Assembly (NCBI GenBank): GCA_000004695.1
Contig: CM000151.3
Coordinates: 2,112,001-2,176,000 of the forward strand
DNA length: 64,000 nucleotides
From: Dictyostelium discoideum
Taxonomy: Eukaryota
Reading direction: 5' to 3'
Made by a program: the position numbers and the translations under genes. Below are positions 1 to 8,598 of this stretch, piece after piece. The notes below the pieces were generated by a model, which was not told the DNA's origin, made no database searches, and saw only the letters and a list, made by a program, of their open reading frames with translations. Every line of letters starts with the position of its first letter. The first letter of the stretch is position 1.

Positions 1-1956
<1,956 letters not shown>

Positions 1957-2191
1957 CTTTTAATTTATTTATTATTATTTGTAAACAAAAATCTAATGCT
2001 CAAAAAATGAAAAAAAAAAAAAAGTTTGAAAAAGAAAAAATAAAAAAAAATAAAAAATAAAAAATAAAAAAAAAAATTGGCGCACTTTTTCGACGCTATT
2101 TTCTTAGAAAAGTGTTAATCTAAATTTTAAACGATAATGATAAACTAATAAACTAATAAATTGGATTTTTTTTTTTTATATACAAGAATAA

Positions 2192-2527
2192 TTAATTAAG
2201 ATTTATTATTTGCTGATTTAATTGTTGAATTTGTAATTTAAGATGTTGAATTTGTAAAAATAATTGTTGATAATAATTTCGTATTGGAATACTATTATTA
2301 CTATCGTTATTATTTTTATTATTATTGTTGTTGTTATCATTATTATTATTCTTGGTAATATCTAATAAATTTATATATTGAGTTGTTTGAATTGTATGCA
2401 TTTCTTTTGAAATGGATTTAATTTGATTTTCTTTTACTAAAATTATATGTTTAGTATTCACTCTTTTTATAAAATTATTATATTGAGATGGTAACTTTAT
2501 GTGATTTGGTAATTGATGAGACTTCAT
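2192..2527 (-). CDS. Small basic/coiled-coil protein, tandem family copy 1 (about 111 aa; MKSHQLPNHIKLPSQYNNFIKRVNTKHI...NYYQQLFLQIQHLKLQIQQLNQQIINL)
   Basis: Complete ORF. The true ATG is at MKSHQ; the ORF-track start at 2536 is a TTG alternative start. About 90% identical at protein level to the ORFs at 3195..3599 and 5004..5300. Internal poly-Asn; C-terminal heptad-like Q/L repeat. Confidence 0.6.
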   Translation of the reverse strand: MKSHQLPNHIKLPSQYNNFIKRVNTKHIILVKENQIKSISKEMHTIQTTQYINLLDITKNNNNDNNNNNNKNNNDSNNSIPIRNYYQQLFLQIQHLKLQIQQLNQQIINLN

Positions 2528-3084
2528 ATGATTCAAACATTTTATATATAATGGATCATTAATATCTATTTTATTCTCTTGAAGTTCATTTAATTTCTAT
2601 TTTTTTGGAGAGAAAAAAAAAAAAAAAAAAATAATAAAAGAAATTTTTTTAAATTAATAAAAAAAAAAATATACATACATTATATCCAATACAAAATAAT
2701 TTTATAATTTCTGTATTATTTTTATTATCACTTTGTTTTTCACTATTTATTGAGTATGTTGGAATTTGTATTTTGTGTGTATTAATTTTAAAGAAAAAAA
2801 AAAAAAAAAAAAAAGTATTTTAAGTAGTAGTAAAATCTGAAAGTTTAATATTGATTTCATATATAAAAAACTTTATTTTTAATGTTTTTTTTTTTTTTTT
2901 TTTAATATTTACACAATTTTTTTTTTCAATGGAAATTTACAAAAAATAAAAAAATAAAAAAAATCTAAAAAAAAAAAAAATCTGAAAAAAAAAAACATAA
3001 ATGATGCCATTTTTTTTGAATTGTAATAAAAAAATCCAAAATCGAGATCTTTGCAAACTTAATTTTCCATTCAACATTTTTTTT

Positions 3085-3200
3085 TAAAATCTTTCAATAA
3101 AGACTAGCAACATCAATGACGACCACAAATTTCAATAACAACACCAATGATATTTCTTTCCACTCCCATTCCAAACCATCACAGCCGCAAAATGCTACCC
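3085..3200 (-). pseudogene. Degenerate fragment related to the 3' part of the hssA-like gene at 4293..4516
   Basis: GC-richer island. Minus-strand frames give ...NIIGVVIEICGRH* and VAFCGCDGLEWEW..., which resemble ...[18 protein letters not shown] / [11 protein letters not shown] but carry stops and frame breaks. Confidence 0.3.
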
Positions 3201-3213
3201 CAACTTTCTCCAC

Positions 3214-3270
<57 letters not shown>

Positions 3271-3599
3271 ATCTTAAAAAAAAACAAATCAAAAAAAATT
3301 TTAATGTATAAGAATAATAAATAAAGATTTATTATTTGCTGATTTAATTGTTGAATTTGTAAAAATAATTGTTGGTAATAATTTCTCATTGAAATACTAC
3401 TATTATTATTATCCTTATTATTATTTGTAATATCTAATAAATCTATATATTGATTAGTTTGAATTGTATGCATTTCTTTTGAAATGGATTTAATTTGATT
3501 TTCTTTTACTAAAAGTATATGTTTAGTATTCACTCTTTTTATAAAATTATTATATTGAGATGGTAACTTTATGTGATTTGGTAATTGATGAGATTTCAT
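3195..3599 (-). CDS. Small basic/coiled-coil protein, tandem family copy 2 (C-terminus reads through into a poly-F low-complexity tail and is probably slightly mis-terminated)
   Basis: ATG MKSHQLPNHIKLPSQYNNFIKRVNTKHILLVKENQIKSISKEMHTIQTNQYIDLLDIT...NYYQQLFLQIQQLNQQIINL. Paralog of 2192..2527. Confidence 0.55.
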
Positions 3600-4175
3600 A
3601 TGGTTTAAACATTTTAAATATAATGGATCATTATTGTCTATTTTAATCTCTTGAAGTTCATTTAATTTCTAAATTTATTTAAAATAAATAATTAAAAAAA
3701 AAAAAAAAAAAACAAAAAAAAAAAAAGTGTAAGTTTTTTTTGTTTTAAAAATAAAAAAAATAAATGATAGAGATATAAAGATATGGATATACATACAGTA
3801 TATCCAATACAAAATAATTTTATAATTTCTAAATTATTTTTATTATCGCTTTGTTTTTCATTAATAATTGAGTATGTTGGAATTTGAATTTTGTGTTAAA
3901 GTTATTTCTAAAATTTGAATATTTTAATAATGATTTGATTTTTTAAAATTACATTCTTTTATACAAAGGTTTTTTTTTTTTTTATTAATATTGTTTTTAG
4001 TAAACTAAATGACTGAAACCATAATTTAAAAAAAAAAAAAAAAAAAAAATCCAAAAATGACACCACCCAGAAAATTAAAATCTGAAAAATAATTAAAAAA
4101 AAAAAAAAAAAATCCAAAAATAAAAAAAAAAACATGGGGTTTTAAGTAAAAAAAAAACTAAAAATGTAAAATTAG

Positions 4176-4209
<34 letters not shown>

Positions 4210-4292
4210 CAAAAGGTTTTAAGTTATCGTCTTCTAGAATACAGTTTTTTTATTTTTTTTGTTTTATTATGTTTTAAAATATCTTTTTAATC

Positions 4293-4605
4293 TTAACAAC
4301 ATCTACGATGATGACGACGACCAATATCAATGTCAACATTAATTATATTTATATTTCTACCTCCACTAATACAACAACCACCACCTCCCATACAACCATC
4401 AAAACCACCATCAAAACATGCAACTGAATTATTACCAATGTTTTTACCAAAGCTACTTAAAGTTGAAATTGAACTATTGATTGACTTTGTTGGATTGGAA
4501 ATTGATGAAATTGAATCTATTAAATAAAAAAAAAAAAACTATTAGTTTTGTTTTATTAATTTTTTTTTTTTTTAAAACCAAATTTCAATTACCGAAAATT
4601 GCCAT
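4293..4605 (-). CDS. Small Gly/Cys/Ser-rich protein resembling the Dictyostelium hssA/2C/7E (sigN) family; 2 exons (4605..4593, 4516..4293), about 78 aa
   Basis: Not in the ORF track. Minus strand: ATGGCAATTTTCG|GTAATTG...TTTAATAG|ATTCAATTTCATCA gives [78 protein letters not shown]. The locus is GC-richer than its flanks; consensus donor/acceptor; frame is preserved across the intron. Confidence 0.55.
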
Positions 4606-5003
4606 TGTTTGATTTTAAATTATTTGTTCTTTTATTAGTTTATATTTAAAAAATAATTAATAATAAAAATTTTAAAAAAAAAAAAAAAAAACATATTTTT
4701 ATAACTTTAAAACATTTTGAATAAATTGTCTATATAAATATTTTTTAATTGAAATAAAATGAAATGTGTTAATAGAAAAGTTTTTTTTTTTTAAACTATT
4801 GAAAGGAATTTTCTGAGCCATTTAAAGTATTTTAAATATTAATTAATAAATTCAAATATTTTTAAAGCTTTTTTTTTTTTTTTGGTAATAGGAAAAAAAA
4901 AAAAAAAAGAAAAAAAAAAAAAAACAAATGAATAAAATAAATGAGTAATGATAACAATAAAAATAATAAAGAACTAATGAAAATATTTTATATACAAGAA
5001 TAA

Positions 5004-5300
5004 TTAATAAAGATTTATTATTTGATTATTTAATTGTTGAATTTGTTGTTTAAGATGTTGAATTTGTAAAAATAATTGTTGGTAATAATTTCTTATTGAA
5101 ATACCACTATTATTATCATTGTTGTTTGTGATATCTAATAAATCTATATATTGAGTTGTTTGAATTGTATGCATTTCTTTTGAAATGGATTTAATTTGAT
5201 TTTCTTTTACTAAAATTATATGTTTAGTATTCACTCTTTTTATAAAATTATTATATTGAGATGGTAACTTTATGTGATTTGGTAATTGATGAGACTTCAT
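5004..5300 (-). CDS. Small basic/coiled-coil protein, tandem family copy 3
   Basis: MKSHQLPNHIKLPSQYNNFIKRVNTKHIILVKENQIKSISKEMHTIQTTQYIDLLDIT...NYYQQLFLQIQHLKQQIQQLNNQIINLY. The ORF-track start 5309 is TTG; real ATG at about 5300. Confidence 0.6.
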   Translation of the reverse strand: MKSHQLPNHIKLPSQYNNFIKRVNTKHIILVKENQIKSISKEMHTIQTTQYIDLLDITNNNDNNSGISIRNYYQQLFLQIQHLKQQIQQLNNQIINLY

Positions 5301-6090
5301 ATGATCCAAACATTTTATATATAATGGATCATTAATATCTATTTTATTCTCTTGAAGTTCATTTAATTTCTATTTTTATTTTAAAAAATAAAAAAATTAA
5401 AAAATAAAAAAAGTGTTAGTATTTTGTTTTTAAAAAAAAAAAAAAAATAAAAAATTAAGATACTCAAACAATTTACTGACACAAAAAAAAAAATAGCATT
5501 GTATAAAAGAATGTAATTTTTTAAAAATGAATTCATTATCAAAACATTCCCAATAGTTATTTCAAGTAATTTTTAAATTAAACTCATCAACACAAAATGC
5601 AAATTCCAACATACACAATTATTAATAATGAAAAACATTTAACTTATATCAAAAAATAAATTAAAAAAATAAAAAAAAAAAAATTTAAGGTTTAACACCA
5701 CCAAAAAAAAAAAAAAAAAAATTGTGAAAAAAAAAAAAAAAAAGATTTTTGTAGTTATCACCTTTGAAATTCTTTTTTTTTTTATTTTTTTTTAAAATAT
5801 CTTGAATCTTAATTTCCTTTTTCACACTTTTTTTTAATAAACAATTTTTTGTTTTTTTATTTTTTAATTAACATATTTGTGTGAATAATTCAATCACGAT
5901 TGCGGTAATTTCTAAAATAAAAAATTTTCACCAAATTTTTTATTTTTTTTTATTTTTTTTTTTTTTTATTTTTTTATTTTTATTTTTTTTTTTTTTTTTT
6001 ATTGTCAATTTTGATCAGTCCCTCACAAGTTCATATTTTATTTTTAAATCAAACCAATAAAATAAGAAATAAAAAAATAAAAAATAAGAA

Positions 6091-6531
6091 ATGAGTATTG
6101 GTATACCAGTTAAAATTTTACATGAAGCAGATGGACATATAGTAACAGTGGAGTTAAAAAATGGTGAACTTTATAGAGGTACATTAATAGAGAGTGAAGA
6201 TAATATGAATTGTAGAATGAAGAATATTACAGTCACAGCAAGAGATGGCAGAAACTCTCAAATGGAATATTGTTATGTTAGAGGTAGTAAAGTTCGTTTC
6301 ATCATTTTACCAGATATCTTGAAAAATGCACCAATGTTCAAGAGAATCGATGGTCGTGTAGTACTTAAAGGTAAAGCATTAGGTATTGGTAAAGGTGCAA
6401 CCTTTGAACGTGGTAATTTCAGAGGTGGCCGTGGTGGTGGTGGTGATCGTGGTGGTTTCAAAGGTGGTCGTGGCGGTGGAGGTCGTGGTGGTTCTATGAA
6501 TACTTTCCAACAAAGAAGAGGTCCACAATAA
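6091..6531 (+). CDS. snrpD3: Small nuclear ribonucleoprotein Sm D3
   Basis: [84 protein letters not shown]... matches the SmD3 Sm fold almost residue-for-residue. C-terminal RG/GRGGGG tail (sDMA-type). Confidence 0.95.
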
Positions 6532-6569
6532 AATTAAAAAAAAAAAAAAAAAAAAAAAAATTAAAGTTA

Positions 6570-6570
<1 letters not shown>

Positions 6571-6646
<76 letters not shown>
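6571..6646. repeat. (AAT)n microsatellite, about 25 units, 3' of snrpD3
   Basis: Perfect aataataat... run directly visible. Confidence 0.95.
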
Positions 6647-6812: not shown

Positions 6813-7708
6813 AAAAAAATAAATAAATAAATTATTGTAAATAATAAGTATACTTTTTTTTTTTATTACTATTACTATTAGTATTATTTATTTTTATTTT
6901 ATTTTATTTTATTTTTATTAAATTTTATTTTATTTTATTTTAATTTTTTTTTTTTTTTAAAAATAATAATAATTAATTAATTTTTTATTACAATAGAAAT
7001 ATCAATTATTATAAATTAAAATAAGTTGTTTATTATAATGATTCTCATTGTTTTTTTTTTTTTTTTTTTACACTCAACTGAAAAATTGTTTTTTTTAAAT
7101 AATTACACGATTGTGTTATGACATCTTTTACAACAAAACACATTATTGTATAACCTTTTAGGATTTTTTAAATTATAGTTATTCGAAATATTATTATTAT
7201 TATTATTATTATTATTATGTTATCTTCATATGTATACATTTTTAAAATTGTAGGGAAATGGGGATAGAGTCAAAAATGAAATAGAAAGAGGGTTATGTTT
7301 TAATTATAATAAATAGGAAATGTTGGTTATTTTATTACAATTTCAGTTATTTTGTTTTTTTGTTTTTTTAGTTTTTTTTTTTTTCAATAAAATTTTTATT
7401 AAAAAATTCTAAAAAAAGGAATATATCCATAGTTTGTTCCAATATTTTATTTTCATAAAAAAAATTGTTTTATTTTTTTTTTTTTAAACAGTTTGGATTT
7501 TTAAACACCTTAACACACCCAACAAATAAAAAAATGGTTTTTTTTTTTTTTTTTTTTTTTAAAATTTTATTTTAATTTTATTTTATTTTTTAAAAATAAA
7601 AGTTATCAATTTGTAATTTAATTCATTGTGTTATTATTATTGAAAATACATATATATTTTTTTTGTTTTTTTTTAAAATTGATCTGATCTGTTAGAACTG
7701 CAGATTGT

Positions 7709-7730: not shown

Positions 7731-7945
7731 TTTCTTTTTTTATCATTTTTATTTTTTTTTTTTTTTTTTTTGAATTCAAGAAAAAAATTAATATGATACA
7801 TTATTCCTTATTTATTTTCTTTGATATTAAAGTTCCTCTGAATTTTATTAGATTTGAAAAGTCCAATAGTTTTTATTATTATTATTTTTATTATTTTTAT
7901 TTTTTTTTTTAAAAAAAAAATAACCTCTTATAATTTTTAAGAAAG

Positions 7946-7977
<32 letters not shown>

Positions 7978-8598
7978 AATAATTAAAGAATCGTACTCAT
8001 TCCAAATTATTAGTAAATTATTAATAATATAATTATTCCAACATATATGATTTTTTTTTTTATTTTTTTTAACCTTTTTTATTTTTTTTATTTTTATTTT
8101 TTTTTTAATTTTTTTTTTTTACTTGAAATTGAGTATTTTCGTTGCTAGCTCTTATAATCTACTTTTGTCGTCAATATACCACCCTTCCCTCATTTTTAAC
8201 ACACATAAAACACAATAAAACACAAAACACGACCCACATTTTTAAATAATTTATCCACTCCATCCTTAGAATTTATGAATAAATTTTTAAGCTCATTAAC
8301 TAAATTTACAATATAGACTACCCTCTGTTCCTTCTTTTGTTAATGTTTTCATTAGATTAAATGAAATGAATTGTTGGTTTTTTTAAAATATTGATATAAT
8401 TTATTTCTTTTCTTTTTTCTCAAAGAGAGGAACACTTAACTGAAATAAAAAATGTGTGAATAAAAAAGTAGTAGAACTATTAGTATTGTTTTTTTATTTT
8501 TTTATTTTTTTATTTATTTATTTTATTTTTTATTTTTTATTTTATTAATTTTTTTAGTATTGTATATATATAAAATATTTAAAGTTGGGAATAAAAAA

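Follow-up and report, generated by a model that had tools for sequence, protein, structure and literature searches.

Three tandem copies of a two-exon zipper gene in Dictyostelium discoideum, each without its ancestral initiator or first exon

The DNA analyzed here is a stretch of 64,000 nucleotides (nt) from Dictyostelium discoideum (GCA_000004695.1, contig CM000151.3, positions 2,112,001 to 2,176,000), which as a whole is called the window and has a G+C content of 22.9%. Near its start, between the genes mcm6 and snrpD3, lies a tandem array of three related genes on the minus strand, numbered copies 1, 2 and 3 by rising coordinate, whose protein ends in a leucine zipper-like coiled coil and which we refer to as zipper genes. 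The repeats proved to be tandem copies of a two-exon gene restricted to D. discoideum and its closest relatives, and in this lineage all three copies lack either the ancestral initiator or the first exon.

A tandem array of a two-exon gene

An earlier note, made from the letters of this DNA, had described three short minus-strand open reading frames (ORFs), and these were indeed present at 2192-2527/2536, 3195-3599 and 5004-5300/5309. The three-copy direct repeat underlying them was borne out at 91-94% identity across 300 nt (2335-2634, 3407-3706 and 5108-5407), and a BLAST comparison of the DNA with itself extended the paralogy to approximately 500-650 nt per unit at 78-85% identity (4986-5449 vs. 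2174-2673, 85%; 4896-5462 vs. 3214-3775, 82%; 3299-3896 vs. 2173-2778, 78%). This similarity is far above chance and the observation of a tandem array therefore holds, though its details do not. The encoded proteins, for example, had been given as about 90% identical, but 92-97% was observed only in their ungapped N-terminal part, while the ORFs with gaps included were 74-81% identical. The length of the poly-Asn tract does vary among the copies and the tract is unstable. No fourth copy of the zipper gene was found across the 64-kb window. The window is AX4-type DNA of chromosome 2, and copies 1 and 3 correspond to the AX4 genes DDB_G0272853 and DDB_G0272762, respectively (the conceptual products of the window are identical to them and synteny is kept), and copy 2 (3195-3889) was not among the AX4 proteins returned by the protein search. 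The ACTFIT assembly merges copies 2 and 1 in a single model of 268 amino acids (aa), P0001.

The relatives considered below come from the D. discoideum assemblies GCA_054859355.1 (L001), GCA_054883475.1 (L002) and GCA_054859385.1 (L005), as well as from D. cf. discoideum (L003), D. citrinum (L004), D. firmibasis (L006) and D. dimigraforme (L007). Upstream of each short ORF in the window the reading frame stays open for 23 further codons (KLNELQENKIDINDPLYIKCLNH), up to a TAG acceptor, and this stretch is conserved to the same degree as the ORF itself. Still further upstream lies a block with the in-frame translation IQIPTYSI...EIIKLFCIGY(N/T), which ends at a GTATGT donor. The intervening introns of copies 1 and 2 (82 and 128 nt) are T-rich and poorly conserved; in-frame extension, GTATGT donor and TAG acceptor were all kept in six of the six genes compared. 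Full-length relatives of 150-166 aa occur in five other assemblies and read MQIPTY...KLFCIGYT/KLNELQ...HMKSHQL..., and in the intronless paralogue P0011 of L005 the segments ...TGTATTGGATATTAT/AAATTAAATGAACTT... are contiguous in the DNA. The splice model is supported because P0011 carries exactly the predicted exon 1/exon 2 junction without an intron. The full-length relatives together with this junction identify the approximately 70 nt formerly taken for a conserved leader (2528-2596, 3600-3668 and 5301-5369) as the in-frame coding 5' part of exon 2, and the upstream block formerly regarded as regulatory as exon 1, with 31 codons including the former initiator. A 93-96-nt exon 1 ending in ...KLFCIGY(T/S/N), the GTATGT donor, the TAG acceptor and an exon 2 starting from KLNELQ were found in copies 1 and 2, and exon 2 alone remains in cis in copy 3. 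The pairwise ratio of nonsynonymous to synonymous substitution rates (dN/dS) in exon 2 was 0.10-0.37; exon 2 therefore evolved as coding sequence.

These observations bear directly on the reading proposed earlier, in which the array is made up of three functional genes that each encode a microprotein of about 100-130 aa starting at MKSHQL, with a co-duplicated 5' leader and promoter. The ORFs do exist and are conserved, and Met55 is kept in most relatives. However, the ancestral product has 150-166 aa encoded by two exons, intact relatives all start 54 residues further upstream, and the ORFs begin at the internal Met55, so that a coding sequence of 150-166 codons was found in place of a single short ORF of at most 100 aa, the short ORFs being truncation remnants. 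The supposed leader is in frame, follows a splice acceptor and has evolved under purifying selection, and what had been taken for a promoter block is exon 1. Translation from Met55 would omit 54 residues with 19 of the 65 invariant positions and two predicted helices, and would have to bypass out-of-frame AUGs in the spliced mRNA (three in copy 1, four in copy 2). The ORF of copy 2 is long (134 aa) because its stop codon was lost, which makes its length an artefact. We consider the microprotein reading very unlikely and already largely refuted. The case carries a caution, since in intron-containing AT-rich genomes upstream exons can mimic a "conserved leader plus promoter" of a short ORF.

An origin as part of a mobile element, or as non-coding repeats with chance ORFs, is extremely improbable. 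One strain (L005) does have an intronless dispersed copy, but six assemblies have the genes at one fixed location between snrpD3 and mcm6, dN/dS is well under 1, and there are only 12 protein clusters in all. The search for dispersed copies and for transposase, reverse transcriptase or integrase domains yielded one syntenic locus, the one intronless copy and no transposon domains. Dictyostelium TRE retrotransposons insert beside tRNA genes, and a tRNA scan of the window revealed none.

Lesions at the 5' ends of all three copies

Lesions were read at aligned columns against the three intact ATG orthologues of L001. At the initiator column, where all three L001 genes have ATG, copy 1 has ATA and copy 2 has ATT (Table 1), and no in-frame ATG was found upstream of the lost initiators before a stop (in copy 1 this stop ends at 2822). 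Copy 2 was affected further. Its stop codon changed from TAA to TTA, with the ORF continuing into a poly-A tract, and a 21-nt deletion took out exactly one zipper heptad (HLKxQIQ) while keeping the zipper register. This deletion (about 3350-3360, minus strand; compared with 2228-2270 of copy 1) sits between direct repeats (ACAAATTCAACA) and looks like replication slippage in the repeat that encodes the coiled coil.

In copy 3 the block upstream had been described as diverged, but it is inverted and occupies about 5462-5652 of the plus strand. Positions 5462-5637 of this strand match the plus strand of L001 at 6931-7114 with 91% identity, covering the promoter and the first 14 codons, while the surrounding region is collinear with L001 in the opposite orientation; the inversion is confirmed by inverted BLAST self-matches between the module and the exon 1 regions of the other two copies. 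Its right breakpoint was placed between 5637 and 5675, and the rest of exon 1 as well as the 5' part of the intron are gone. The inversion is also present in L002. This independent assembly, with 99.27% identity to the window across 9 kb, has all four lesions, which rules out sequencing errors as their source. An intact initiator, that is a MQIP... ATG followed by a complete frame, was found in none of the window copies, and their state in L002 was the same.

Table 1. Features of the array and its flanks in the window
Feature	Position	Strand	Remarks
Flank, mcm6 first exon	1516-1956	-	ORF; the syntenic gene in L001 and L002 has MCM_N, MCM_OB, MCM and WHD_MCM6 Pfam matches
Copy 1, exon 2 with stop	2192-2596	-	KLNELQ...QQIINLN, then stop; the short ORF (2192-2527) is the 3' part from Met55; orthologue P0002 (L001)
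Copy 1, intron	2597-2678	-	82 nt, GTATGT...TAG; TAG acceptor 2597-2599; junction confirmed by intronless P0011 in L005
Copy 1, exon 1	2679-2771	-	31 codons, IQIPTYSINSEKQSDNKNNTEIIKLFCIGYN; former initiator 2769-2771 now ATA
hssA-like 3' remnant	3076-3156	-	Between copies 2 and 1; alignment to 4266-4351 scores 45 (shuffle mean 21.5, maximum 36)
Copy 2, exon 2	3195-3668	-	Ancestral stop 3318-3320 now TTA; 41 junk codons on to 3195
Copy 2, intron	3669-3796	-	128 nt; CCATATCTTTATA insertion common to copy 2 and the orthologous P0004 gene
Copy 2, exon 1	3797-3889	-	Former initiator 3887-3889 now ATT
Copy 2, promoter remnant	3956-4021	-	TATAAAAG at 3956-3963; degenerate inverted repeat at about 3995-4021
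hssA/2C/7E (sigN)-family gene	4293-4605	-	Between copies 3 and 2; exon 1 ORF ATGGCAATTTTCG 4593-4605; exon 2 4293-4516, ending ...GRRHHRRCC, then stop
Copy 3, exon 2 with stop	5004-5369	-	Reading frame intact
Copy 3, intron, 3' part	5370-5461	-	Rest of intron and 3' exon 1 deleted; collinear alignment resumes at L001 7201
Copy 3, 5' module, inverted	5462-5652	+	ATG 5597-5599, then first 13 codons (MQIPTYTIINNEK), reading away from exon 2
Copy 3, promoter remnant in inverted module	5475-5509	+	Second palindrome half 5475-5482; TATAAAAG 5502-5509
hssA-like 3'-flank remnant	5706-5813	-	Upstream of copy 3; alignment to 4182-4297 scores 87 (shuffle maximum 44)
Flank, snrpD3 (Sm-D3-like LSM-domain gene)	6091-6531	+	ORF; the syntenic gene has PF01423 LSM in L001, L003, L004, L006 and L007

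A cross-species alignment of approximately 220 nt upstream of the start in eleven genes revealed a conserved block that consists of the inverted repeat GTGTCA-N14-TGACAC, an A-run, and then GTATAAAAGAATGTAAT (TATA box) and AAATGAAATCATTATTAAAA; the promoter element shared after inverted repeat and A-run is TATAAAAG. The exact palindrome occurs once each in L001 (6926-6951), L003 (7861-7886) and L006 (7854-7879), 115-150 nt upstream of the ATG, and this exact pattern was found nowhere else in about 118 kb of loci. In copy 3 the inversion breakpoint falls within the palindrome spacer and only the second half-site is left, and the copy 1 lineage is without the palindrome in both strains. The claim of a co-duplicated promoter thus holds for copies 2 and 3 and fails for copy 1, and the element concerned is another sequence, further upstream. 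In the single-copy orthologue of D. citrinum (L004, about 7880-8000) an (AAT)n microsatellite of about 100 nt separates the promoter block from the ATG. The inverted copy 3 promoter and ATG (5597-5659, plus strand) face snrpD3 (from 6091, plus strand) and open a 20-codon ORF, MQIPTYTIINNEKHLTYIKK followed by a stop; judged from this arrangement, the promoter may drive an upstream sense transcript towards snrpD3.

The AX4 gene models of copies 1 and 3 (125 and 129 aa, respectively) are built around the missing initiator. In copy 1, a change of the last exon 1 codon from ACT to AAT, unique to this lineage, makes an ATG that straddles the donor (2678-2680), and the DDB_G0272853 model ("MY-KLNELQ") combines it with a donor moved by 6 nt, a 6-nt first exon and a 33-nt pseudo-intron (2463-2495). 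The DDB_G0272762 model ("MFFIINNC-KLNELQ") relies on an ATG (5636-5638) and a chance GTATGT donor on the antisense of the inverted exon 1 (5615-5638, minus strand). Both new starts are in frame and exon 2 is intact in both copies, as would be expected if they had been rescued to yield N-terminally remodelled zipper proteins with all of exon 2. Against such a rescue, the models stem from automated prediction and that of DDB_G0272853 needs an implausible 33-nt intron, the invariant exon 1 residues 21-30 (E..KLFCIGY) would be lost, the copy 3 promoter now faces the other way, and the lesions may be too young for further decay to have occurred. Overall, we regard a rescue of copies 1 and 3 as unlikely.

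Even less is to be expected from low-level synthesis of the full-length protein of copies 1 and 2 from near-cognate AUA and AUU in the A-rich context AAAAUN, to which we give only a slim chance. Either substitution yields a near-cognate codon whose context is otherwise unchanged, and it is unusual for two different substitutions to hit the same base (P of about 0.007, calculated post hoc with a uniform model). AUA and AUU are, however, generally among the weaker near-cognate starts, and copy 2 has been damaged further by stop loss, heptad deletion and promoter decay.

The distribution of the lesions itself forms an unusual pattern, with two different substitutions at the same initiator base, a third 5' lesion, and exon 2 of copies 1 and 3 intact. 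The uniform model, applied post hoc and without regard to indels, gives a probability of 0.083 that a disabling substitution strikes the start codon, and of 0.007 for two copies. The coincidence would be smaller if the start had been lost once, transferred to the other copy by gene conversion and then altered by an A/T change, but comparison of exon 1 between copies 1 and 2 revealed no sign of recent conversion. It is conceivable, if improbable, that the three 5' lesions did not arise by neutral decay and that selection in the NC4/AX4 lineage acted to silence or remodel a dimerising factor that varies among strains. If so, truncated zipper-only products might act as dominant-negative partners, or loss of the family might have been favoured in social or laboratory settings, and a young gene polymorphic in copy number (one to three copies plus a strain-specific retrocopy) would have been caught between birth and death.

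Relatives, encoded protein and hssA-type neighbours

The order of genes in L001, LSM (Sm-D3) - P0003 - hssA-like - P0004 - P0002 - MCM6, mirrors that of the window. Two zipper copies were present in D. cf. discoideum (L003) and one each in D. citrinum, D. dimigraforme and D. firmibasis. Zipper genes adjoin the LSM gene in L001, L003, L004, L006 and L007 and have hssA-type neighbours in L001, L002, L003 and L006, and the position between the LSM Sm-D3 gene and mcm6, beside hssA-type genes, was found for the window array as well. In L003 (10754-16597) the right flank consists of two polycystin/PKD-channel-like genes in place of mcm6, and this side of the locus has presumably been rearranged.

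On the basis of intron indels and flanks, the orthologues in L001 are P0002 for copy 1, P0004 for copy 2 and P0003 for copy 3. Judging by copy number across the species, the amplification is evidently specific to the D. discoideum complex. Because each copy has its own orthologue in L001, the amplification predates the split of lineages that are approximately 12-15% apart in non-coding DNA, and the recent unit duplication proposed earlier does not stand. Positions 1762-6596 of the window are about 85-88% identical to L001 5924-11000, including intergenic DNA, compared with 99.3% for GCA_054883475.1; GCA_054859355.1 may stem from a cryptic species or from a lineage that has diverged very far. 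Homology of the family members is well supported, with E-values of 1e-43 to 1e-139 against 12 clusters and 65 invariant columns among eight full-length members. Synonymous divergence (dS) was 0.07-0.15 between paralogues within a genome and 0.14-0.36 between orthologue pairs; introns and flanks track orthology. This pattern hints at gene conversion between copies, confined to exon 2, although the sites compared are few and poly-Asn alignment noise inflates the copy 1 comparison.

P0011 (127 aa; L005 7990-8390) is an intronless divergent paralogue at an unrelated locus, 58-73% identical to the family; its Ile21 codon has become a new ATG. An equivalent protein was found neither in AX4 nor in the other assemblies, and P0011 looks like a strain-specific retrocopy of a spliced mRNA. 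In D. firmibasis (L006 8001-9086) the annotated P0012 joins the zipper gene and the hssA-like gene downstream of it in one chimeric protein; tblastn revealed an intact stand-alone zipper ORF ending in ...QLNQL and a stop, with hssA-like genes on both sides.

The family had been called unrecognised, and homologue searches did return only the family itself. The protein search covered 5.8 billion sequences and yielded 12 clusters, all of them from the D. discoideum/citrinum/dimigraforme/firmibasis clade. Nothing beyond the family was detected in an exhaustive hidden Markov model profile search of 1.84 billion representatives, and no new members in a word-indexed search seeded with the most divergent member, P0011. 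Full-length and truncated proteins had no Pfam match at the cut-off, and Foldseek found no match in the PDB at E<=0.001. Sub-threshold matches to TFIIF_beta_N (15.6 bits, cut-off 25) and DCP2 box A (17.3, cut-off 28) were rejected as composition noise. The sole profile match among PDB sequences, a Bartonella Bep protein (E=0.13), was also rejected. Beyond a generic helical bundle there is no detectable relative or known fold class.

The intact protein has 150-166 residues and no signal peptide. Its architecture comprises a highly conserved N-terminal two-thirds, a variable poly-Asn linker and a C-terminal coiled coil of four heptads. AlphaFold2 (AF2), run on an eight-sequence alignment, predicted an all-helical protein with helices at 13-38, 46-57, 68-117 and 127-165 with a mean predicted local distance difference test score (pLDDT) of 73.8. 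A heptad scan confirmed that the tail is a true heptad repeat, with Y/I/I/I at the a positions and I/L/L/L/L at the d positions; a and d were 100% hydrophobic over four heptads in six of the eight members. D. dimigraforme scored 0.82, and the P0002 scan was anchored in the poly-Asn tract and is uninformative, its zipper sequence being the same. Ile at a together with Leu at d specifies parallel dimers in GCN4 variants. By these rules a parallel dimer is favoured, and the intact protein most likely forms a homodimer or a heterodimer of paralogues via the zipper, as far as its sequence can tell; paralogues could heterodimerise because the e and g positions are mostly Gln.

The N-terminal half had been described as basic, which is true of the truncated ORF only, as the actual N-terminal 54 residues have an isoelectric point (pI) of 5.6, compared with 9.9 for residues 55-112 and about 9 for the whole protein. 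Nothing tested supports the suggested binding of nucleic acids. The protein is not a bZIP protein, because no basic region abuts the zipper: the N-x7-R/K signature expected in front of a bZIP zipper is replaced by poly-Asn and SISIRNYY, the basic residues lie in a separate helix 30-70 residues upstream of the zipper, and no bZIP Pfam match was obtained even at E<=10.

Of the neighbours, the hssA-like gene reported between the units is real. It has the 13-nt first-exon ORF that is a hallmark of the hssA/2C/7E (sigN) family (PMC2257962), together with one short intron and a Gly/Ser/Cys-rich product in the range of about 75-95 aa, and the same gene in L002 has a PF05710 match on record. The decayed hssA fragment was likewise confirmed, aligning to the 3' end of the hssA-like gene, and a second remnant was found upstream of copy 3 (Table 1). 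The duplicated unit consists of a zipper gene and an hssA-like gene, because every unit in the window has an hssA-type gene or a remnant of one. No sequence similarity was found between the zipper genes and the hssA-type genes.

Status of the family and comparison with known systems

Taken together, the locus is probably best interpreted as an old tandem array of an orphan, dimerising zipper gene that was recently inactivated in this lineage. The ancestral unit would have combined a two-exon zipper gene with an hssA/sigN-type gene and been triplicated long ago between mcm6 and snrpD3. Copy 1 has lost its ancestral start by an ATG to ATA change and copy 2 by ATG to ATT; copy 2 also lacks its stop and one heptad and has a decayed promoter palindrome, and copy 3 has lost its start through inversion of promoter and exon 1, with the remaining exon 1 deleted. 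The short ORFs first noticed are the longest remnants of exon 2 that begin with an ATG. On comparison of the assemblies, the whole family has most likely been inactivated recently and specifically in this lineage. Copy 2 is clearly dead, and we infer that copies 1 and 3 would give N-terminally truncated products, weakly expressed at best. The outcome that the earlier note had named as fatal to its proposal, namely that the copies are pseudogenes, has thus probably come true, the ancestral initiator or first exon being gone in three of three.

Several points weigh against this interpretation. Exon 2 still has no frameshift or premature stop in copies 1 and 3, and N-terminally truncated proteins from the AX4 alternative starts are possible in these two copies, because an alternative ATG and donor exist in both. 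AUA and AUU are near-cognate codons able to support low-level initiation. A literature search on the identifiers DDB_G0272853 and DDB_G0272762 found no paper naming either gene, and both identifiers were absent from the supplementary files of one cell-type RNA-seq paper. With regard to dimerisation, the five AF2 models ranged in mean pLDDT from 43 to 74, and the AF2 monomer model would also allow the C-terminal helix to fold back onto helix 3.

The state of the array has consequences for the reference annotation, in which DDB_G0272853 and DDB_G0272762 are to be corrected as improvised models of genes with a defective first exon or initiator in AX4. The analysis also defines a clade-restricted orphan family of one to three copies with a clear architecture and a conserved promoter palindrome. 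As the family is intact in some isolates of the D. discoideum complex and disabled in the laboratory lineage, it offers a natural loss-of-function/gain-of-function pair for studies of young genes. Its importance is local, with no hint of a new mechanism.

Among known systems, the closest are the relatives of DDB_G0272853 and DDB_G0272762 in other assemblies, which are the same genes but intact, 150-166 aa long and starting with MQIPTY. The zipper resembles those of GCN4 and other bZIP proteins in its four heptads with beta-branched Ile at a and Leu at d, conserved across the family, but differs from them in having a poly-Asn/Ser linker in place of the basic region and mostly Gln at e and g, without charge-based partner specificity. 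With the hssA/2C/7E (sigN) genes (PF05710), which encode small Gly/Ser/Cys-rich developmental proteins, the zipper genes share tandem amplification on chromosome 2, in which the two are interleaved and co-duplicated, as well as a two-exon structure with a short first exon. The hssA-type genes differ in their 13-nt first-exon ORF and Cys-rich C-terminus, whereas the zipper protein is helical and Gln/Asn/Lys-rich and has a 93-nt first exon.

The status of the copies compares best with that of unitary or polymorphic pseudogenes that arise by start-codon mutation. In both, the initiator is lost while orthologues in sister lineages are intact, and secondary decay follows, represented here by the stop loss, in-frame deletion and promoter decay of copy 2. 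The array differs in that three paralogues carry three different 5' lesions and two of them keep intact downstream ORFs. In kind the array is ordinary, a tandem gene family of restricted distribution that is probably decaying in the reference lineage.

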